Shown: positions 2,277 to 52,897 of the stretch, one piece after another | Layout: every line of letters begins with the position of its first letter | Numbering within the stretch: position 1 is the stretch's first letter | NCBI GenBank assembly: GCA_016714125.1 | Contig: JADJNX010000006.1 | Location: 111,681 to 175,680 of the forward strand | DNA length: 64,000 nt | Origin: Ignavibacteriales bacterium | GTDB taxonomy: Bacteria; Bacteroidota; Ignavibacteria; Ignavibacteriales; Ignavibacteriaceae | Direction of reading: 5' to 3' | The notes under the pieces: generated by a model | Seen by the model: the letters and a program-made list of their open reading frames with translations, nothing else | What the model was told of the DNA's origin: nothing | Databases searched by the model: none | Program-made: the position numbers and the translations under genes

Positions 2277-3482
2277 TTATTCCTTAAACACTTCCTCGGC
2301 GATATACTCTCCAATACTTAGTGATGCTGTCGCCGCCGGGGATGGAGCATTAAGCACATGCAGCATGTTTTTGGTGTGTTTTAAATAGAAATCATCGAGC
2401 AACTTACCATTCCGGTCAAGAGCCTGGGCACGAACACCGGCACCACCTTTTACAAGATCACCCTCCTGAATCGCAGGTAACAGTTTTTGAAGAGCTTCTG
2501 CGAAAGCGGTTTTATTTAACGATCGATAAATCTCTTTTAGACCCATTGACGCATACTTGGCACTCATCTTTAAATATCCGGGGAAAGTCAAAAATCCAAG
2601 TGTATCATTAAAACTAAAATCAGCCCAACTGTACCCTTCGCGCTTAAAAGCAGGCACCGCGTTTGGACCGGCTTCTACTCCCCCTTTTGCCATTCGGGTG
2701 AAGTGCACACCAAGGAAGGGGAATGCAGGATCAGGTACGGGGTAGATAAGATTGTTAACAAGAAATTCTTTTTCGGGTACAAGTTTGTAATATTCTCCAC
2801 GGAATGGAATGATCTTTATCTCGGGATCAACACCACATAACTGTGCAATAACATCTGAATGCAAACCACCACAGTTGATCAAAAATTTTGTTTCATATTC
2901 TCCCGTAGTAGTCAGGAGAGTTAACTCATTCCGATGTTGACGGAGTTCAATAAATTCGCAATTAAGTTTTATTTCTCCACCAAGACTTTCTATCAGTTCA
3001 GCGAGTTTTTTAACCACCTTTGTGTAATCAACTATACCTGTCTGCTGTACAAAAAGTCCCTCAATTCCTGCACAATATGGCTCATGTTCTCTAATTTCTT
3101 TGAAGTCAAGTCGCTTTAATCCTGTAAGGCCATTTGCTTTTCCTCGAAATTCAATATCATTAAGTCGGAAAATCTCATCCTGCGTCGTGGCTACCACTAC
3201 TTTCCCACATCTTTCGTGGTAAATATTGTGTTCCTCGCAGAATTGATACATCATCTCTCTGCCGATTGTGCAGTTTTTGGCTTTGAGTGAACCGGGTTTG
3301 TAATAAAGTCCGGAGTGGATAACCCCGCTGTTATTACCTGTTTGATGTTTTGAGAGGTACGGAGCTTTTTCGATAAGGAGGAGTTTGCAGCCGGGTTTCT
3401 TTTTAAGGATTGAGTAAGCGGTTGCCGTTCCGACGATACCGCCACCGATGATAACATAGTCGTAATTCATAATAAACTTCAA
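2277..3482 (-). CDS. lhgO: L-2-hydroxyglutarate oxidase (FAD-dependent)
   Basis: YDYVIIGGGIVGTATA Rossmann motif and HQTGNNSGVIHSGLYYKPGSLKAKNC, closely resembling E. coli LhgO. Confidence 0.75.
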   Translation of the reverse strand: MKFIMNYDYVIIGGGIVGTATAYSILKKKPGCKLLLIEKAPYLSKHQTGNNSGVIHSGLYYKPGSLKAKNCTIGREMMYQFCEEHNIYHERCGKVVVATTQDEIFRLNDIEFRGKANGLTGLKRLDFKEIREHEPYCAGIEGLFVQQTGIVDYTKVVKKLAELIESLGGEIKLNCEFIELRQHRNELTLLTTTGEYETKFLINCGGLHSDVIAQLCGVDPEIKIIPFRGEYYKLVPEKEFLVNNLIYPVPDPAFPFLGVHFTRMAKGGVEAGPNAVPAFKREGYSWADFSFNDTLGFLTFPGYLKMSAKYASMGLKEIYRSLNKTAFAEALQKLLPAIQEGDLVKGGAGVRAQALDRNGKLLDDFYLKHTKNMLHVLNAPSPAATASLSIGEYIAEEVFKE

Positions 3483-3535: not shown

Positions 3536-3850
3536 GGAGGGATGGGATAGTTCCACGGATGCCACGGAATAGACACGGATGCTCGCGGAATTTTAGCGTT
3601 AGAGGCAGGAGTGGTAATCGTCCCGATTGCCATCAGTAAAATGCACAGCCGTTAGAGAAAAAGTTACACAGATATCACGGATTTTCACAGATACCACGGA
3701 TTTTTTAGGGGACGCAGATCCACCCCGGCGGACAATGTACACGCAGATTAGACAGATTTTCGCAGAGGGTTTTTTTATTTACATCACTGAAGTTCTGAGG
3801 TTCCGAAGCTCTGAAGTTCTAAAAAACTCAAGTACTAAGTACTCAGGTAG
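3536..3850. repeat. Copy of the modular interspersed repeat family, followed by octamer tandem repeats
   Basis: Contains CACGGAT/CGCGGAA-type degenerate units and the GGAGTGGTAATCGTCCCGATTGCC hairpin. Also carries GGGGACGCAGAT..ACACGCAGATTAGACAGATTTTCGCAGAG with an 18-nt insert. These are followed by (TGAAGTTC)-like x4 and CTCAAGTA-like x3. Confidence 0.8.
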
Positions 3851-3854
3851 TTCT

Positions 3855-5696
3855 CTACGGAATCAGCTCTTGCCTGAGTTGATTAATGTCGATGAAATCG
3901 GCCCAGTTGTCGAGGAGGGGGACGCCGGTGATTCTACCGCCAAAACCCATGAGGCGGTGAACAAACATTACAATACTTGAAGTTTTTAGATCTTTTAGTT
4001 CCGATTCAAACGCTTTTGCATTATACTTTTGAGCGAGACCCGTGGTTTTGTTTGAGAGGAATTTATTGAGCTTCTTTTTGGAAAGGTAGGTTCTTAATTG
4101 CTCTTTTGAACTTTCATATTCAAATTTCAGAGAGTCATTCATACTGCTTTTTTCAGTTACGAGAAGTAGAGAATAACCATCACCTCTTTTGATGGGTCCA
4201 TACAGTTGGTTCAAATCGAGTTTACTTGCGATAATTCCGATATCACCGAGGAAGACTGCGGGTTTAAGTCCCGTTTCTCCTTTTTCGTTGACGAGAGGAT
4301 CAGTTTTCCCTCGTGATTTTAATATTTCGCTAAAAGATTTTCCTTTTCCTGTCTCATTCAATACCACTTCAATTTCGTTAAGATCTTTAACGGTCAAGAG
4401 TTGAATGTTTACAAGAACAAAATCTTTATCCTTCAATACATCCTGTCTGTAATAATCTTCAATTTCGGAATCGCTCACTCTCGCAGAATCGAGAAAAGAG
4501 ACTTTCATAACCTGTGCAAGAAGGTTTTGTTTCCATGATTCCAGATCATCCGTAACAGATTTTAACGATTTTAACCCTTTTTTTTCTGCTTCAAAAGTGA
4601 GTATCTGTTGTTGAACAAAATCTTTTGCCAGTTTGCTTAGTCGTTTAAATACTTCGTTTTTTGATTGCGATTTAAATTCAGGTTCATCCAGGGCAAGGGA
4701 AGCGAGGAAATCAAAAACAGTTACAGGTCTTTCATCCACATTAAAGAGGGTGGTACCGGATTTATCATTTCTGATTGAAGTTCTCAACTTTTGATAATCG
4801 GTGGAAGTGAGGATATACTTAAATCCTGTTGAATCATTTTTTGCGGGCGGCGCAGCATAAATTATATCAAATATTTGACCGGCAACGAATTTAAAAGGCT
4901 CACTTTCGATATTAATTTTGTAGTCTGCGAGCAATCCACCCAGATACTCTTTCATTCTGTGGAGGGCGCGACGGTCTTTAACGGTTTGTTTGATTTTATC
5001 AACAACCTTGGAGTTGGCGATATCAACCGCCTGGAAAACAACATTATCGATATGAAAGATAATCCAACCATTTTCGCTGTTAATCGGTTGGGTCGATTTT
5101 CCGGGGGTGAGGGCAAAGACCGAGTCTTCAATCTCTTCATCTTGAAGTACTCCAAGTTTCAACTCCATAGGGATAACCTGGATTGAGGAATACTCAGGTA
5201 ACTTTATAAGAGAATCAAGCTTTTTGCCGGAGGACAAAGACAAATGGATTTGTTGGATTAAATCCCGGTTTGGAGATGAAAGAATCGAGGTTTTAATCGT
5301 TTTGGAAGCTTTTGACAGGGCATTATTAACATCCCCGGCACTCAGATTAATTTTACTATCCACTTCCATTTTAAAGAGGGCATCCCTGAGGAAAAGGTCT
5401 TCGAGGGGCTTAAAGTAGAAACGGAATTCTTCAGTTCTGTCGGCTCCCTGATCAACAGCTTCAAGGTACCAAAGTTTTTCTGCAATAAGGGAATAGAGAA
5501 AATCTGCCTTCAGAGAATCACGGTTCCACCCGTTTTTGTGCGACAGGAAGGGGGAAAGTTCAAATCGAGTCTTAAAATCTCTTTCCGTTATCGTGGATCC
5601 ACCAACGGTGGCAAGAATTTTTCCATCAGGCTGGGCAGAGATTACCGAAATAAACAACAGAAGACAAACAAAGGCTCTTTTAAACATCATTTCCAA
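3855..5696 (-). CDS. Periplasmic PpiD/SurA-like peptidyl-prolyl isomerase chaperone
   Basis: Signal peptide, SurA-like N-terminal region and parvulin-like segments (GWIIFHIDNV; GYSLLLVTEK). 613 aa. Confidence 0.6.
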   Translation of the reverse strand: MEMMFKRAFVCLLLFISVISAQPDGKILATVGGSTITERDFKTRFELSPFLSHKNGWNRDSLKADFLYSLIAEKLWYLEAVDQGADRTEEFRFYFKPLEDLFLRDALFKMEVDSKINLSAGDVNNALSKASKTIKTSILSSPNRDLIQQIHLSLSSGKKLDSLIKLPEYSSIQVIPMELKLGVLQDEEIEDSVFALTPGKSTQPINSENGWIIFHIDNVVFQAVDIANSKVVDKIKQTVKDRRALHRMKEYLGGLLADYKINIESEPFKFVAGQIFDIIYAAPPAKNDSTGFKYILTSTDYQKLRTSIRNDKSGTTLFNVDERPVTVFDFLASLALDEPEFKSQSKNEVFKRLSKLAKDFVQQQILTFEAEKKGLKSLKSVTDDLESWKQNLLAQVMKVSFLDSARVSDSEIEDYYRQDVLKDKDFVLVNIQLLTVKDLNEIEVVLNETGKGKSFSEILKSRGKTDPLVNEKGETGLKPAVFLGDIGIIASKLDLNQLYGPIKRGDGYSLLLVTEKSSMNDSLKFEYESSKEQLRTYLSKKKLNKFLSNKTTGLAQKYNAKAFESELKDLKTSSIVMFVHRLMGFGGRITGVPLLDNWADFIDINQLRQELIP

Positions 5697-43159: not shown

Positions 43160-43505
43160 TGTGGATGGTTCACCATGGTTGGGCAAATAAGTTTCTAATT
43201 TAACCCCGCACACGGGGTAAGGGTAATTTGGAGATTCAGCATAGCTACGAATATGAATTCCGTGTCGCGGAAAATCTTTGAGTTTTTTCGTTTTGCAGAG
43301 GGCAATCGGGACGCTACGAATATATATTCCCCACTGGGGAAAATCTCTGAATTATATCAATTTGCAGAGGGCAATCGGGACGATTACCACTCCTCACCCT
43401 TACGCCTAAGATCCGTGGACTCCGCGTAACCATCCCCATCTGCGAAACTCTGTTTAATCTGCGTGTATCTGCGTCCCCTAAATTCCATGGAACTATTCCC
43501 CCTGA
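43160..43505. repeat. Largest copy of the modular interspersed repeat family, including a 69-bp tandem duplication
   Basis: CCCCGCACACGGGG hairpin. Two 69-nt units (43244-43312, 43313-43381) each end in GCAGAGGGCAATCGGGAC. Reverse-oriented GGGGACGCAGATACACGCAGATTAAACAGAG module at 43455-43495. Confidence 0.8.
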
Positions 43506-44196: not shown

Positions 44197-44436
44197 AGGA
44201 TTTTTTCCATTGTAGACATCTCTCGAATAATTGAAATGGCCTGGGAAGACCGCACTCCATTTGAAGCACTCGAAATTCAATTTGGATTAAAAGAAAATGA
44301 TGTGAGGGAGATAATGAGAAGAGAAATGAAATCTTCAAGTTTTAGGATGTGGCGTGAGCGGGTAGGTGGTAGAAAAACAAAACATCTTTCTCTCCGCTCA
44401 GATGACATAAACCGATTTAAGAGTAAAAATCAGTAG
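44193..44436 (+). CDS. DUF2805 / TIGR03643-family small protein, probable frame break in a T6 run near 44203
   Basis: IIEMAWEDRTPFEALEIQFGLKENDV core. ATG 44193 joins the main ORF (44236-44436) if T6 is read as T5. Confidence 0.6.
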
Positions 44437-44460
44437 TTTTGTTAGAGAAGCCCAAATTGT

Positions 44461-45052
44461 TTACCAGCGCATAAATTTATAAGTAAAAATTAATTGAAGG
44501 GACAAATTTCCGTCATCGATTTTAGCAAAATTATAATATTTTAGTTCAGCACCTACAGCAAAATGTTTATTGAGTGGGCGCAGGTATGTTGCAGCACCTG
44601 AGAAACCAAGGGTAATCTGAGAACTGCTTGCCTTTGATCCAAATCCATTTCCTCTTGTGTTTAGGAACATGACTCCCGAAGAGAATTTAACTTCCAACTC
44701 GGGTAACATTTGCGGGAAAACGACCATTGAAAAAAACCGCCAGAAGTGGAATTGAAAACATCGAAATTTCCGCCTTACTTCTCCCAATTCCGGTGAGATT
44801 GACCACCTGATCAAGTGAATACAATTGATGATAACCCGTCTCTACCCCAATCCTTAGCAGGTGTTCAGGCTGCCACATTATTCTTAAAGTCCCATTCAAT
44901 CCATGAAGATTAATATCAGGCATGTTGAGATCAGTAAGATGATATGAATATCCGGCTCCAACTTCCAGATTAAGTGAATATAGAGAATCTTTAATCTGGG
45001 GAGTGGCAATGCCCATCAAGATTACAATGAGGAATAACGTCTTTATTAACAT
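44461..45052 (-). CDS. Small outer-membrane beta-barrel protein, frame broken near 44700-44760
   Basis: Signal peptide, alternating beta-strand pattern and a C-terminal aromatic residue (..IFTYKFMRW). Confidence 0.55.
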
Positions 45053-45055
45053 GAT

Positions 45056-46308
45056 CTACCTTGTATAATGATAGTATGCAACAAGTGACGGATAATTTGT
45101 AAGAATCCCATTAAATTTTCCCTCCGTAAGGAAGCTTTCGATAAAAGCCGGGTCGTCCATTGTCCAAACGAAGGCACCTCTTCCCTCATTTTGAAGCTCC
45201 ATAACAGTTGAAGTCTGAGTTCCGAGAGTCCACCGAGGCGCCCAATATATTGAATTTGCCCTTCGAACTGAATTAACATCGAGTTCACAGAGTGTTGGGA
45301 TTGTGCTAAAATCTTTCATATTAATGAGATTTGTCAACTTATCTTCAGATGGAATTCCAATAACAATCTGAATATCTCTTTTCTTTATTGACCCTCTTTT
45401 AAGCATCTCCTTAACGATCTCAGTGACAATCGGGATTTCATTACGAGAAGATTTTAGATCGAGCCAAACAATCGAAAGAGAAGTTTCTTCAATAATTAAT
45501 GTAAGAGCATCGATTAATGTGGGATTTTTTCACCATTTTTTAAGGTAATATAAGCGCTGATAAGAGGCCAGGTGAATTGTTCAATATTCCCCCATAACAC
45601 ACCTTTTTGAGTTGTTCTTAGATTAATATCATTATCGTGATAAATAAAGGGGACACCATCACTGCTGAGTTTGACATCAATCTCAACACCATTGGCACCA
45701 TATCCTTCAGCTTGTTTTAGTATCTCCAGAGTATTTTCCGATACACCGAGATAGTCCGAGTTTCTGCCACCTCCACGGTGAGCAAGAATATGAAATTTTG
45801 TCTGTTTAACAAAATCACTAAATGGACGCAAAAACTTGAGGATAACTTCCGTATTTTTGGGTTGGTTGCCGTTACCAAAAGAACCTCTCAGGATTATTTC
45901 ACCACTTGTCGAATCCTTCTGAAGGAGTCTTGTCCCTCCCTCAACTTTGGAAATTTGCATCCCCACAGCACCCGTTTCTGTGCTTGTCCTGAATCTCCAA
46001 TACCCTTCAAAATAGAATACAGAATCAAGAACTCCTCCTTGTAAAACTGCGTATCCACCATTTTTTGAAGAAAAAATTGAGAGAGTATTTTTATTCCACT
46101 TTAAAACCACCTGTTTGCCAAAAACTGAAGCACCGGATTCTACTGTGTAAATCCCTTCCATCCAGGGTTTTGGTTTATTTGGAACAGGATCCGTTGAACC
46201 AAGAACACCGGAGGGATCAACAATCGGGTATTGTACCTCAACACTATTTTCGCATGATGAAAGGAGAAATGAGACTCCCAAACAGAGGAGAAATATTACT
46301 TTTTTCAT
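45056..46308 (-). CDS. Glycerophosphodiester phosphodiesterase (GDPD) family lipoprotein, frame broken near 45518
   Basis: Lipobox LLSSC and GDPD motif ILAHRGGG..ENTLE...GANGVEIDV. Reading a C3 run as C4 restores ..GEKIPTLIDALTLI.. Confidence 0.75.
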
Positions 46309-47015
46309 AAATTAAAACTAAAAATAAATTCAGGAAGCAGGAAAAATCGGTCGAAAGTTGAGAATCCGGCCCAGAGGGGATAATAAAAGCGGGCGTAATT
46401 TGCTTTAAATCCGATCACTACAAAGTTCTCTTTCCAGAGAGGTTGCTCGATATAAACTCCAACAGAATATCCCGCCATTGTCCGGTATGAGTTTACTGTA
46501 TGTACATCTCCATTTCGGGTCGATTGGGTTAAAATAAGCATCATCTCAGATTTTACACTGACACTGAAGTTGGGGAAAGTATAACCCACAGTGATATTGG
46601 GCGATAGATTCCAGCCATCCATTCCTGTATCAAAACCGTAACTTTTCAGACGCCCAAACCAGAATCCCAAATCTGTCCCTACTGATAATTTGAAATCCCC
46701 AAAATCATGATTCCAGTTTAGCCCTGATGAAAAGTTGAACGTTAGGTAATTTGATTCAATAAAACCTTGAGCAAGAATATTATCAATAATGCCAACTTTT
46801 ATTCTGTAAGTAAAAAGAGGTGACAAAAATGCATCATCGGTTTCGATTACATCTTCAGGAAGTTTGGTGGAGCTTAATCCAATATTGTGAATCACTTCAC
46901 CTGATTTAAGAGAACGAGGGAGATGGAAGGAATTATTTGTAATCGTCGTAGTTTGGGGTAAAGCAGGGCAAATGTAAAACACTAAAACCAGGAGGACAAT
47001 TTTAAATGTTTTCAA
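46305..47015 (-). CDS. Hypothetical outer-membrane beta-barrel-like protein
   Basis: Signal peptide, alternating hydrophobic pattern and a C-terminus ending EFIFSFNL. Confidence 0.45.
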   Translation of the reverse strand: MKTFKIVLLVLVFYICPALPQTTTITNNSFHLPRSLKSGEVIHNIGLSSTKLPEDVIETDDAFLSPLFTYRIKVGIIDNILAQGFIESNYLTFNFSSGLNWNHDFGDFKLSVGTDLGFWFGRLKSYGFDTGMDGWNLSPNITVGYTFPNFSVSVKSEMMLILTQSTRNGDVHTVNSYRTMAGYSVGVYIEQPLWKENFVVIGFKANYARFYYPLWAGFSTFDRFFLLPEFIFSFNL

Positions 47016-47138
47016 TTGGTCAAAATATTCATTTAGTGTTAATTCAAAGATTGATTTAAAGGAAATCTCTTTTAATCGTCAAAAGCAAAAACAATTTAAC
47101 AAAAGTATGAATGTATATCAATACGGAAACTTATTCCT

Positions 47139-47154
47139 TGGCAGGTGACTTGCA
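47139..47154 (+). promoter_or_regulatory. Sigma-54-like -24/-12 element TGGCAG-N5-TTGCA
   Basis: Canonical spacing, but it lies about 215 nt upstream of the CIA30 gene. Confidence 0.3.
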
Positions 47155-47370
47155 TGCCTGGAGTTTTGCACTTCTATTCATATTCAGTACTTATTGACAG
47201 TTTTGTAATCCGAAATCCGTCCGGATGCAAAGATCGAAACCATTAAACCTTATCAATTATTTAAGCTTTCTTTCCACTCGCTATTTGCAACCTTCTTGTC
47301 AAAAAGTTTTGTTATTCTATTAACACTTTAAACTTCAACTTACTTATAATAAGTTTAGAAAGAGCGACAA

Positions 47371-47925
47371 ATGAATTTTCTTTCAATTATACTTGCAGCA
47401 ATGATTATGAATAACTCTATACTACTTAACGAAGACAACATTTTGCTCAATGCATCATTAATGAAAACAGAGAACCAGTGGCGCATAGTAAATGATGGTG
47501 TAATGGGTGGATTAAGTTCCTCAAAAACTACTATTAAAGATAGTAAAATAGTTTTCAGTGGAAATGTTTCTTTAGAAAATAATGGCGGATTTGCTTCGCT
47601 AAGAAGCCCGGTAAAAGATTACGATTTTTCTGAATTCTCGGGAATTGAATTAAAACTTAAAACCGATGGCAAGCGTTACAGCATATCAATGAAGGAGACT
47701 TCATACTTTAACGGATATTTTTATACTATTTCATTTGAAACAAAGAAAGATGAGTACATCATTGTCCGGATTACTTTTAATCAGTTGAAACTTTATTACT
47801 TTGGGAATGAAACCAACTCGAAAAATAAAATTCCTCTGGATAACATCAAAGAAATTTCTTTATTGATTGGTGATAAACAGGAAGGTGGTTTTATTACTGA
47901 GGTTGATTATATAAAACTATACTGA
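47371..47925 (+). CDS. CIA30 (complex I intermediate-associated protein 30-like) domain protein
   Basis: WRIVNDGVMGGLSSS...NNGGFASLRS motif. Confidence 0.75.
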   Translation: MNFLSIILAAMIMNNSILLNEDNILLNASLMKTENQWRIVNDGVMGGLSSSKTTIKDSKIVFSGNVSLENNGGFASLRSPVKDYDFSEFSGIELKLKTDGKRYSISMKETSYFNGYFYTISFETKKDEYIIVRITFNQLKLYYFGNETNSKNKIPLDNIKEISLLIGDKQEGGFITEVDYIKLY

Positions 47926-48115
47926 TTAAATTCAAATATATTTAACAATAATTATTATAGAAATGAATCGGGAGCGCTATCACGGAATTTAAAACAAAAA
48001 ACCCGCCACAAGGACGGGTAATTTTGTCGGCTCCGTCCCGATTCCTCGGGAAACCTGTGCCAACCCTTCGGTTAACAGCCGTCCCGACCAGTCGGGAGAG
48101 CTATCACGGAATTTA

Positions 48116-48142
48116 AAACAAAAAACCCGCCACAAGGACGGG
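48116..48142 (-). terminator. Terminator downstream of tRNA-Asn, duplicated at about 47990-48017
   Basis: Minus strand reads CCCGTCCTTGTGGCGGG followed by TTTTTTGTTTT. Confidence 0.55.
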
Positions 48143-48154
48143 TAATTTTGTCGG

Positions 48155-48226
48155 CTCCGCGAGCAGGACTCGAACTTGCAACCCTTCGGTTAACAGCCGA
48201 ATGCTCCACCATTGAGCTATCGCGGA
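48155..48226 (-). tRNA. tRNA-Asn (anticodon GTT)
   Basis: Manual fold: acceptor TCCGCGA/TCGCGGA, D stem GCTC/GAGC, anticodon stem TTCGG/CCGAA with loop CTGTTAA, T loop TTCGAGT. One A-C mismatch in the T stem. CCA is not encoded. Confidence 0.85.
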
Positions 48227-48496
48227 ATGTTTTGCTTCTTTAACAGTCGTCCCGATTCATCGGGAGAGCTATCTAGGAATGTTTTCATTTTAAAAGTTTT
48301 TCACAAAACAATTTCAAAATGAGCTACAAATATAAGCAAATTTCATATTGCTGTCAATAACAATTTAAAAAATTAAATTATTTTTCATTAGTCTTGTAAA
48401 TCTCCCTAAAAATAGAGAAATTCAATTGTGGTTTTGAGATATTATTTTTCTCACCGCAGATAGTTAAGCTCGTTTAAAAATTAACAGGATTTCAAT

Positions 48497-49265: not shown

Positions 49266-49497
49266 ATTTCACTTCACATCGGAGTTCAAAAAAATGACAC
49301 TCCGGCCTGCTGTCCTTACTTAATCATTCATTCATCAGATATTCACAATTGACATCACCGCCGGAGCATCGGGAGAGATTTTAAACTCACTTAAAGATTA
49401 AACATCTTCGATGCTAAATTAAGTTCCTGTAACAAAAAATATCAACAAAAGTTAAACACAATTTGATTATTTCGCTGAAGTGTAGTAATTTTGAAGA

Positions 49498-50442: not shown

Positions 50443-52897
50443 TCATATCAAAATAATTCTTACATCTTTGTGTTTTCCTTTTTGGCGGAAAACTCTGTAG
50501 GCGTGGGCGATGGTGTCTCTAAGGATTGAGGCTGAGGGGTCAATTGATCGAGAGGTTTTGATTAACATCTGAAAACGAAACTCGTTTTTTATTTTTGCGA
50601 GAAGTGCTGCTGATGGGGGTAGAATTGAGACTGCACGATTGTAGTTAAACATCTCTTTATAAAGATCGATCAGAGTTTCACTGGCTTTGCGGGGGTCTTT
50701 ATCCTTGGTTTCGGCAAGGCAGAGATTAGCAAAAGGTGGATAATTTCTGAATTCCCTGCTTTGAACATCTCGCGCAAAAAATCCATGATAGTCGTTATTC
50801 ATTATGAATTTCATCAGTGGATGTCCACTGTCGCACGTCTGGATCATTACTTCACCCGGGAGGATACTTCTTCCGGCTCTTCCACTCACTTGCGTGAGCA
50901 TCTGAAATGTTCTTTCCTCCGCTCTGAAGTCGGGCATCCAAAGACTTGATTCAGCAGAAATTACACCCACAAGAGTTACGCGAGGGAAATCGAGTCCCTT
51001 TGAGACCATTTGTGTCCCTACCAAAATATCAATCTCTCCATCCCTGAACTTATTTAGCGTTTCGCCGAGTTTCCCTTTTTCGGAGATGGTGTCCGAATCA
51101 ATTCTTTCGATTATTGCTGAAGGAAAATAAGCTTGAAGTTCATCTTCAACCCTCTCGGTTCCCGTGCCAAAAAGTTTGATGTTTTTTGATCCACACATAC
51201 TGCATGCTTTAGGCATCGGCTTTATTGCATTACAATAGTGGCACTTCAGATTGTTGCTTTTAATGTGATATACCATTCCGACCGAACAATTTTCACATTT
51301 TTCGAGGTGCGCACATTCAACACAATAAACCTGTGTTGCAAATCCGCGACGGTTTTGAAGAAGGATTACACCTTCGTTTTTTTTGATTCTTTCGTCGATT
51401 GCAGAAAGGAGCATTTTTGAAAAAACATTCTCCATCTCCCCTTTCTTTTTCATCTCGGTTGTATTTACGAGAACAAGTTTTGGAAGTTTTGCTCCATCCA
51501 CCCTTTCGGGAAGTTCGAGCAGAGTATATTTTCCATTGTTTGTATTGTGCATTGACTCGATGGAGGGGGTTGCGGAGCCCAGGACAACAGGGCAGTTACA
51601 CTCCTTCGCCAGTACAATTGCGGCATCCCTTGCATGATATTTGGGAGGGTATTCAGCTTGTTTATAGCTTGAATCATGCTCTTCATCAACAATTATCAAT
51701 CCGATATTCTTCATGGGTGAAAAAGAGTGCAGATCTTGCGCCTGTTACAACTTTACAGGCTCCGGAAGCGATCCGCATCCATGCATCATGTCTTTCACCG
51801 GGTGACACCCTGCTGTGGATAACTGCCACCTTGTCACCAAAATTCACTGTTAAGCGGGCGGTCATCTGAGGAGTGAGGGAGATTTCAGGCACCAGCAAAA
51901 GGCAGTTTTCATTTTGTTACAACGCCTTTTTTATAAGCTCAATGTAAACCTGAGTTTTACCACTTCCCGTAACACCATGCAGTAAAAATGTCTTAAAACT
52001 TTTGGTGGTGATGTGTTCGGAAACCGTTTCAATTACATTTTCCTGATCTTTGGTAAGTTTAATGTCCTTAAGAGTTTCGGTATAAGTTTCGTGATAAACC
52101 CTTTCAACAACCTTTTCATAAAACTCAACAAGACCTTTTTCAGCAAGGGAATTAAGAGCCGAAGATGAGATGTTTGCCAGCTTCAGCAGTTTTGCCGTTG
52201 GTGCCTCTTTTGTGCGAAATGAGGCAAGTTTGAGAAGCAGCGCCACCTGTTTTGGCGACCGTTTTTCGATCTCTGGAATGATGGCATAAATCTCTTCAAG
52301 GGGGAGAGCAAGTTTCACAAATCGTTCAGTTTTTGTTCTAACCCGCGGTTTTGCAAGTCCATCCTCAATTGTTAAAATCCCCTCCTGTTCCATTTTTTTA
52401 AGTGGAACGAGGATAGATTTTACACCTGTCAGATTTTGCAATTGTTTTACGGTGTATTTATCCTTTTTGAGGAGGAGTTCCATCACTTTATAGCGACTTG
52501 TGTTCCTGTTTTTTTCATTTTCAATGAATTTGGAGATTGTTTCCTTATCGGAATATACCTGTTTTTCCGATTGGATTGAAGTGCCGTAAGGGTCGGTAAG
52601 TTTAACAGCTTCGCCAAGTGAACTGAGGTAATAGGATGAAAGCCATTGAAAAAACTTCAGTTTCTTTTTATCAAAAACGGGGTGTTTGTCGAGGATTCTG
52701 ACGATTTTTTTGATTTTATCAAGTTCAGTTTCTGGTGGGGTGTTGCTGATAGAGACAATAAATCCGGTCAGGGTTCTTTGTCCAAAGGGTGCCACTACCC
52801 GTTTCCCGATTTCCACCTCCTCATACAAGTCCATCGGGACTGAGTAAGAAAAGAGGGAATCAACGGGAAGCGGGAAAGCGACTTCTATAAATTTCAT
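50443..52897 (-). CDS. priA: Primosomal protein N' (PriA helicase), interrupted by an in-frame TAA (51917-51919) and a frame break near 51705
   Basis: Walker A GVTGSGKT, LVPEISLTPQ, IIVDEEHDSSYKQ and a Cys-rich zinc region. Three ORF pieces: 51917-52897, 51686-51898 and 50443-51714. Confidence 0.85.

Follow-up and report, generated by a model that had tools for sequence, protein, structure and literature searches.

The 64,000-nucleotide stretch of an Ignavibacteriales genome that is analysed here (assembly GCA_016714125.1, contig JADJNX010000006.1; hereafter called the window) carries on its minus strand one intact tRNA-Asn(GTT) gene that is surrounded by partial copies of itself, and in these copies segments of the D and T arms are replaced by a short hairpin, TCCCGA-N4-TCGGGA. 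Read 5' to 3' from 48357 to 47965, the array consists of a promoter, a 5' pseudo-half, the true tRNA-Asn, a terminator, a full-length pseudo-copy with two hairpins, the same terminator once more, and a fragment (Table 1). A first-pass annotation made from the letters of the window had described five minus-strand elements at this place, and all five are present, base for base. The genuine gene is detected by both ARAGORN and Rfam, whereas the pseudo-copies are recognised neither by ARAGORN nor by the Rfam model RF00005, even at E<=10. Rfam 15, searched at the gathering and E<=10 thresholds over the window and 18 related loci, returned tRNA models only and no other RNA family. Beyond what the annotation had noticed, such tRNA-derived copies flank, in relatives, a gene for a very small nuclease of the GIY-YIG type, and it is this association that guides our interpretation.

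The pseudo-half begins with the acceptor 5' strand (2 substitutions), continues with UA and GCTC, carries a hairpin in place of nucleotides (nt) 14-27 and ends with CGACTGTTAA in the anticodon loop. A spacer of 11 nt separates it from the genuine gene, and given the position of the promoter it is predicted to lie inside the leader of the pre-tRNA. In the full-length pseudo-copy the D loop and stem and the 3' portion of the T arm are swapped for hairpins, and only five acceptor pairs are possible. The sequence before its T-position hairpin, GCACAGGTT, resembles GCAAGTT, the 5' strand of the T stem plus TT, and the junction of GCAAGTT with the hairpin is also seen at a related locus, L029. The annotation had taken the anticodon arm of this copy to be kept exactly. 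The 21 nt at 48061-48081 are indeed identical to 48179-48199 of the genuine gene, but the 5' strand of the anticodon stem is partly replaced, only 3 base pairs (bp) can form, the minimum-energy fold pairs the region otherwise, and the identity is one of recent descent. The loop of the truncated third copy is that of hairpin 1 in reverse complement. As a whole the array repeats with a tandem period of 124 bp, including a 68-nt repeat at 99% identity.

Table 1. Features of the tRNA-Asn array and its surroundings in the window.
Feature	Position	Strand	Remarks
Sigma-70-like promoter, TTGACA-17-TATATT	48329..48357	-	11/12 matches; 5' of the pseudo-half
tRNA-Asn 5' pseudo-half	48240..48280	-	ATTCCTAGATAGCTC-TCCCGATGAATCGGGA-CGACTGTTAA
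Hairpin 1, TCCCGA-TGAA-TCGGGA	48250..48265	-	in place of D loop and 3' D stem
Genuine tRNA-Asn(GTT)	48153..48226	-	ARAGORN; Rfam tRNA model 65.6 bits at 48155-48226
Intrinsic terminator 1	48115..48143	-	stem 48143-48125, then T-run
Full-length pseudo-tRNA-Asn	48029..48112	-	nt 1-13 and 21-nt block (nt 28-48) retained; two hairpins
Hairpin 2, TCCCGA-CTGG-TCGGGA	48082..48097	-	D position, in place of nt 14-27
Hairpin 3, TCCCGA-GGAA-TCGGGA	48036..48051	-	T position, after GCACAGGTT
Intrinsic terminator 2	47991..48019	-	stem 48019-48001; identical to terminator 1
Truncated third copy	47965..47988	-	ATTCCGTGATAGCGC-TCCCGA-TTCA...; one hairpin arm only
Possible decayed hairpin arm, CTCTCCCGAT	49368..49377	-	about 1 kb upstream of the promoter; relationship to the array uncertain

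The palindrome is a feature of this array and not of the window at large: it occurs three times against 0.13 expected, a count that none of 100 shuffles reaches, and all three occurrences stand in place of tRNA arms, as the annotation had it. A scan of one genome per prokaryotic species with the motif TRGCTC-TCCCGA-N4-TCGGGA-C gave 49 loci, where about 9 are expected by chance from the information content of the pattern, and 27 of them have a tRNA gene at a distance of 700 nt or less. About 20 of the 49 are Ignavibacteriaceae or Ignavibacteriales genomes with the same tRNA-Asn 5' pseudo-half, and the same layout thus recurs in about 20 Ignavibacteria species genomes. At 18 Ignavibacteria tRNA-Asn loci (and at L002, which is cut at a contig end) a promoter is followed by a hairpin-bearing pseudo-copy and then by the genuine tRNA; the pseudo-half stands 20-60 nt upstream of the genuine gene and always downstream of the predicted promoter (18/18 loci). 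The loops of its hairpin vary among these genomes (TGAA, TAGA, TGTA, CAAG, TGCA, TAAA, CGGG, TGTG). Closest to the window are L005, a metagenome-assembled genome (MAG) 85.5% identical over 7.4 kilobases (kb), in whose array two halves lie upstream and two or more full-length copies, each with two hairpins, stand in tandem, and L010, 79-91% identical, which has the upstream half only and is without window positions 44225-48112; the copy number of the array differs among the three. A T5-A68 change in the acceptor stem of the pseudo-copy, considered as compensatory, was taken as chance, and L005 does not keep it. Homologues of the S46 peptidase, the upstream neighbour tried as an anchor for further tRNA-Asn loci, were paralogues with no tRNA downstream, and the viral contigs searched with a tRNA-Asn 39-mer and two hairpin patterns gave 0 matches and thus no sign of phage origin.

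The same hairpin is found outside tRNA-Asn. In Bacteroidota it is carried by partial copies of tRNA-Met(CAT) (Chitinophagaceae, Algoriphagus), tRNA-Lys, tRNA-Val (Aequorivita) and tRNA-Phe (Flavobacterium), and at a tRNA-Arg gene of Winogradskyella four hairpin units stand in tandem, one with a decayed hairpin. Taken together, seven tRNA species have copies in which it replaces a segment of the D loop, the anticodon side or the T loop, and all 34 hairpins of the window and the 18 Ignavibacteria loci lie at tRNA-Asn; this bears out the view that the hairpin is a module associated with tRNA-like sequence. The replaced segments always begin after GCTC (nt 13/14, D loop) or after GTTC, GTTCG or GTTCGA (nt 56-58, T loop), and in tRNA-Asn copies nt 38-47 are also replaced; the 5' copies break off at one of two places, in the anticodon loop or behind the GTTC of the T loop. 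The hairpin ends were also considered as terminal repeats of an element that carries the tRNA, a general model that we rejected, as an upstream hairpin is present at only 2 of 66 flavobacterial tRNA-Phe loci.

The stem of the hairpin is under structural selection. Among 47 distinct pseudo-T-arm sequences, 98.2% of the stem cells are paired, against 90.8 ± 0.7% in shuffles (0 of 500 reach the observed value) and 23-70% in slid controls. The outermost pair is C-G in 24 sequences and U-A in 23, with no mispairs, and the second is C-G in 36, U-A in 7, G-C in 2, U-G in 1 and otherwise composed in 1, whereas the inner 4 bp, CCGA/UCGG, are invariant apart from a few broken pairs. Pairing therefore matters; covariation of this kind does not separate a structure of the RNA from a hairpin or cruciform structure of the DNA. 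Other palindromes take the same T-loop position in Asn cassettes (TCCGCC-GC-GGCGGA, TCCGTTA-GC-TAACGGA and TTCGCC-GC-GGCGAA), and a D-position hairpin at L135 reads CCCCGA/TCGGGG. Decayed hairpins in L043, L013, L033 and the fragment of the window indicate that not every copy is maintained.

At six of the loci found by the motif (L003, L016, L029, L037, L041, which has two, and L047) an open reading frame (ORF) for a GIY-YIG protein lies directly against the hairpin-bearing copy. These cassette ORFs encode 85-96 amino acids (aa) and match Pfam PF01541 at E values of 1e-12 to 1e-14 over residues 1-73, that is, the catalytic domain and little else, with no DNA-binding domain fused as far as Pfam coverage goes. 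The closest solved structures are those of the stand-alone, uncharacterised UPF0213 proteins 1zg2 and 1ywl. Five aligned cassette ORFs have invariant Tyr, Tyr, Gly, Arg, His and Glu columns, which we take to be the catalytic positions of the GIY-YIG fold. An assignment of the nuclease to a defence system was rejected, PADLOC and PHROGs having given marginal or no matches.

The bias of a search that starts from the hairpin was removed by a metagenome search with the protein only, blind to the hairpin, which returned 80 loci with 95 ORF hits. Fifty-seven of the 95 ORFs lie 250 nt or less downstream of a tRNA on the same strand, nearly always tRNA-Phe at 46-64 nt, with tRNA-Leu(TAA) taking its place in a distant GIY-YIG subfamily; most of the others either stand second to fourth in a tandem array or are truncated at a contig end. 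An exact hairpin follows within 160 nt downstream of 45 of the 95 ORFs, and a covarying variant stands there in most of the others. The canonical unit consists of the tRNA, its terminator, the GIY-YIG ORF, a 3' pseudo-copy (T-stem 5' strand, TTC, hairpin, T-stem 3' strand and acceptor 3' strand) and a copy of the terminator, and is often found in tandem; in Phe cassettes the 3' pseudo-copy begins in the anticodon loop. An 85-aa subfamily of Ignavibacteria comprises 368 clusters at E<1e-8, and three of three contexts sampled without regard to the hairpin lie at tRNA-Asn with hairpin-bearing Asn pieces. In one of these, L134, at least four pseudo-copies precede the genuine gene, and two units of ORF, 3' pseudo-copy and terminator follow in succession. 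Another, L136, opens at a contig end with the 3' end of a tRNA and a terminator, behind which come the ORF and a decayed pseudo-copy; L135, like the motif-found L037, runs from a promoter through a 5' half, a second patched copy and the ORF to the genuine tRNA.

Cassettes of this kind multiply and decay. Tandem arrays of 2-4 ORF units are common (four in L055), and the ORF copies within them are 86-99% identical with a ratio of non-synonymous to synonymous substitution (dN/dS) of 0.18-0.39, indicating that the cassette protein is under purifying selection. L043 has the layout of L037 with the ORF deleted and its last codons and tail kept, and ORF-less units stand between tRNA and ORF in flavobacterial loci and alternate with ORF-bearing ones in L065, L098 and L110. 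The segment 3' of the hairpin, with its terminator, is usually 93-100% identical to the 3' end and terminator of the genuine tRNA in the same genome, against a mean identity of 77% for the 10 nt 5' of the hairpin. From these identities the long 3' repeat is evidently homogenised or repeatedly re-formed, and the short 5' stub drifts.

The array of the window has the features of this family, namely partial tRNA copies in the orientation of the gene, a D or T loop swapped for a G+C-rich hairpin with the CCGA/TCGG core, and a following copy of the tRNA terminator. Its copies match units in L005, L029, L134 and L135 and in the Phe, Leu and Met cassettes, and judged by this correspondence they belong to a family of tRNA-derived repeats found with GIY-YIG genes beside tRNA genes. 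Within this cassette family the hairpin is conserved and constrained in its structure, and the units amplify in tandem and lose their ORF. As the window is without a GIY-YIG ORF, we place its array among the ORF-less derivatives, like L043, L065 and L033, and we regard it as somewhat probable that the array descends from a cassette, linked to tRNA genes, around a stand-alone GIY-YIG nuclease gene. In such a scenario the nuclease would break DNA in or beside the tRNA gene, and unequal or short-homology repair of the breaks would produce partial duplications with breakpoints in the anticodon and T loops. In redundant copies the hairpin would come to replace the conserved loops, and a single intact copy would be retained by selection on the host. 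The hairpin itself would be a cis module selected for its structure: it might strip recognition features of tRNA and so render redundant copies inert, might remove a target of the nuclease or of a recombinase, or might serve the nuclease as a structural recognition site or handle. Units would then multiply in tandem and lose the ORF, leaving arrays such as that of the window. Tandem amplification and the presence or absence of cassettes among relatives bear only indirectly on a putative Seg-like homing of the cassette.

Several observations weigh against this explanation. No GIY-YIG ORF was found in the 64-kb window by jackhmmer among six-frame ORFs of at least 50 aa, so the link to the nuclease rests on homology of the repeat architecture and not on a gene at the locus. 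Flavobacterium shii (L003) has two tRNA-Phe genes 1.4 kb apart (3097-3170 and 1666-1739) with a cassette only at the second, and a cassette-free tRNA-Phe thus coexists with the nuclease gene. From one tRNA type to another the hairpin junctions shift by 1-3 nt, an observation that speaks against a single, precise cleavage site. If the hairpin conferred immunity to a homing nuclease that cuts loops, the genuine tRNA beside each cassette, which keeps its loops, would be an essential copy left exposed. Cassette subfamilies follow taxon and tRNA identity, and horizontal mobility is therefore only putative. Lastly, the pseudo-half is far better conserved than the surrounding spacers among ten related Ignavibacteria, which had been selected for an intact hairpin, and this sequence conservation hints at a function of its own.

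Some neighbouring features may be noted here. The annotation had connected the array with interspersed repeats of the window through the 10-mer CGTCCCGATT. Its five matches (0.10 expected) stand, but two of them are array hairpins themselves, and the other three belong to a separate repeat with CGTCCCGATTGCC that has a single arm and no partner, two copies bearing GGTAATCGTCCCGATTGCC; the tie, a single arm plus flank, is a weak one. Likewise the fragment near 49369 and the hairpin region do have the 10-mer CTCTCCCGAT in common (2 matches, 0.07 expected), and the resemblance ends there. Short word repeats of the CACGGAT, CGCAGAT or CACAGAT type, together with GGTAATCGTCCCGATTGCC, are interspersed at 3540-3760 and 43190-43500 of the window. 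Similar words occur directly 3' of tRNA-Asn in L010, L026 and L039, and a flavobacterial version (CCGCAAAG and CGCTAAG words) follows most tRNA-Phe GIY-YIG cassettes.

The promoter region of tRNA-Asn, CTTGACAAACAACGGGGTCAATGTTATCTTTGACCTCG, is near-invariant in ten species (L015, L019, L022, L027, L030, L035-L037, L043, L046), and the overlapping inverted repeats in it (TTGAC...GTCAA and GGTCAA...TTGACC) suggest an operator. A Verrucomicrobiota chromosome (L006) carries five repeat copies in 8 kb, at 331, 1951, 4563, 6290 and 7611, of the form GGTAG(C/A)TC-TCCCGA-N4-TCGGGA-CTG(G/A)TCCGC, some followed by GGTAGAGC; from its sequence this may be a family derived from a tRNA D arm with the same hairpin in another phylum. 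Repeats that bear the motif with no tRNA nearby were seen in Isosphaeraceae (L008, L049), Smithella (L025, L028, L034) and Bacteroidales (L009, L012, L014, L044, L045).

Downstream of the array, the 3.9 kb at 44225-48112 that are not in the syntenic L010 start exactly at the first downstream pseudo-copy; genes for a CIA30-domain and a GDPD-domain protein lie in them, along with several small ORFs. L010 has in their place about 100 nt between the terminator of tRNA-Asn and the region of the flavin-reductase gene, which corresponds to the window from 44225 downwards. At another Ignavibacteria locus, L022, the gene for a large serine recombinase of 546 aa (3916-5556, minus strand; Resolvase, Recombinase and Zn-ribbon domains) reaches into the 3' end of tRNA-Asn, which lies on the other strand. 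A separate integrating element of these Ignavibacteria thus uses tRNA-Asn as its attachment site, too; L037 has the same downstream flank. On the other side of the array, priA is split into two minus-strand ORFs over 50443-52897. The first (51917-52897) holds the 3'BD domain and the start of the helicase, the second (50443-51714) the helicase C-terminus, a Cys-rich region and the C-terminal domain, and about 200 nt of out-of-frame coding sequence separate them; the gene is a pseudogene with a frameshift, or else the assembly is wrong here.

A bolder proposal, which we put forward tentatively and hold to be less probable than not, is that the stand-alone nuclease and the 16-nt hairpin, selected for its structure, form a minimal two-part selfish system on tRNA genes, in which the nuclease would cut stem-loops of the tRNA gene and repair would duplicate the gene as well as write the hairpin into the conserved loops of each redundant copy, or else that the patched copies are expressed as tRNA-like RNAs with remodelled arms and a regulatory or decoy role.

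The hairpin could be a minimal mobile palindrome that resembles a repetitive extragenic palindromic sequence (REP) or a miniature inverted-repeat transposable element (MITE), possibly mobilised in trans by the GIY-YIG nuclease, which invades the loops of stem-loop DNA and survives only in redundant tRNA copies. This we consider unlikely. The same 6-bp stem occurs at D, anticodon-side and T positions in two phyla; it also sits inside the loop of a tRNA-Phe terminator (CCCGAATAG, hairpin, TTCGGG) in L057 at 2845, L076 at 30 and 619 and L079 at 2845, and is nested in another hairpin (CCCCGA/CGGGG) at about 2790 of L093, so that loops other than those of tRNA can be occupied. Loops that differ between copies at one locus, one of them inverted, and a partly duplicated hairpin in L020 would be expected of a mobile palindrome as well, and mobility that depends on structure would also yield covarying stems. 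Such an element should be dispersed, however, and none of the 34 hairpins counted above lies away from tRNA-Asn, nor does the window hold one elsewhere. Moreover, the hairpin takes the place of 3-19 nt instead of being plainly inserted, its junctions are those of a replacement with no target duplication and no constant sequence, and unrelated palindromes occupy the same T-loop position.

That the pseudo-copies are functional RNAs is, in our estimate, quite improbable as an account of the array. The pseudo-half would be a cis leader released by RNase P that may control folding or processing of pre-tRNA-Asn, or a small RNA, and the full-length copy a tRNA-like decoy, for example for enzymes directed at the anticodon. 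All copies share the orientation of the tRNA and are bracketed by a strong promoter and terminators, the pseudo-half is conserved where neighbouring spacers are not, and stem covariation is what selection at the level of RNA would give. Equilibrium folding also predicts that the acceptor strand of the leader pairs with the 3' acceptor strand of the genuine tRNA with a probability of 0.65. The conservation, however, was seen in a sample picked by a pattern that requires the hairpin. The pairing of the two acceptor strands reaches 0.80 once the hairpin is taken away, and competition is predicted with and without it; an 'insulation' idea, in which the hairpin would keep the pseudo-half from mispairing with the genuine tRNA, was not adopted as the main explanation. 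The window and L005 do not have the acceptor pairing of the full-length copy in common, no more than 3 bp are left of the anticodon stem of that copy, whose minimum-energy fold is a different one, and no Rfam family exists for the pseudo-copies. Second hairpins and 3' parts decay freely in many lineages, and a hairpin that recurs in seven unrelated tRNA contexts, in terminator loops and downstream of ORFs is ill suited to an Asn-specific regulator.

Relics of integration and excision of an integrase-type island at tRNA-Asn, altered later by unrelated mutations, were found inadequate already in the first-pass annotation, and we agree that this origin is largely refuted and very unlikely. The anticodon loop and the T loop are classical crossover positions of integrases, and the breakpoints of the array fall in them. 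The tRNA-Asn gene hosts an integrating element in relatives (the serine recombinase of L022, with the same flank in L037), and the window has 3.9 kb beside the tRNA that L010 is without. However, Pfam detects no recombinase gene among the ten ORFs across 42.5-51.7 kb, that is, within about 5 kb of the array, the copies are proximal to the gene and include 5' halves upstream of it, no tRNA-like repeat is present at the far boundary of the 3.9-kb segment (about 44225), and unrelated mutation cannot place the same covarying hairpin in the same internal loops at hundreds of loci. A collapsed or chimeric repeat can practically be dismissed, even though the window probably comes from a metagenome assembly and contains a frameshifted priA, as the same array is found with species-level differences in the independent assembly L005 and the architecture recurs in dozens of genomes, isolates included.

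tRNA genes are classic landing sites for mobile DNA, and the known footprints are exact partial repeats left by integrases. The cassette family with which we associate the array leaves a different one, partial copies in which a covarying hairpin takes the place of the universally conserved loops, in two phyla and at least seven tRNA species, and this footprint goes with a GIY-YIG nuclease of very small size whose type, UPF0213, is uncharacterised. If causal, the link would give a function and a testable substrate to this widespread protein family, define a new minimal selfish element and explain 'tRNA-like' repeats that tRNA finders and Rfam miss. A two-part selfish system, if real, would represent an unrecognised route by which tRNA identity is 'edited out'. 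Arrays in the leaders and trailers of tRNA may also affect tRNA expression and genome annotation.

Full-text searches of the literature found no description of hairpin-patched tRNA copies with GIY-YIG genes, and the nearest known systems each share part of the architecture. Closest are free-standing genes for GIY-YIG homing endonucleases in tRNA gene clusters. SegB of phage T4 is described as a site-specific endonuclease, encoded in the tRNA gene cluster of the phage, that drives preferential inheritance of its region (PMC2330249), and it is reported to promote segmental amplification of anti-defence loci (PMC13096335). Here too a small GIY-YIG gene lies among or beside tRNA genes, and the tandem arrays of the cassettes resemble SegB-driven amplification. 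Unlike SegB, the putative nucleases of the cassettes are chromosomal and consist of the catalytic domain only (85-96 aa, nearest to UPF0213), and the cassette includes a partial copy of the neighbouring tRNA with loops swapped for hairpins, which has no matches in viral contigs.

REPs lie scattered over the extragenic space of whole genomes, and the enzymes that mobilise them are HUH Y1 transposases known as REP-associated tyrosine transposases (RAYT). The present hairpins share with the REP/RAYT system and with MITEs a short palindrome with conserved stem and variable loop, many non-autonomous copies and a flanked small nuclease gene. They differ in being confined to tRNA-derived repeats, and some terminators, at one type of locus, in replacing sequence and in going with a GIY-YIG enzyme; no HUH or DDE transposase gene was seen in the flanks of the array, and there is no target-site duplication. 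Integrative elements leave partial repeats and fragments of tRNA genes (bioRxiv 10.1101/2022.07.05.498093). Their attachment-site (att) duplications are comparable in that non-functional tRNA fragments lie by a genuine tRNA with breakpoints in the anticodon and T loops, but they repeat the 3' end of the tRNA exactly, at the distal boundary of an integrase-bearing island. The present arrays combine 5' halves, full-length copies and 3' pieces in tight tandem with systematic replacement by the hairpin.

Group I introns with homing endonuclease genes occupy the anticodon loops of tRNA genes (Leu-UAA, fMet, Ile-CAU). The cassettes likewise tie a nuclease ORF to a tRNA gene, and tRNA-Leu(TAA) and CAT tRNAs are among their hosts, but Rfam detects no intron RNA, and the cassette ORF follows a complete tRNA and its terminator instead of lying inside the gene. 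Set beside these systems, the cassette family to which the array of the window is assigned is a variant of nuclease-associated selfish DNA at tRNA genes.

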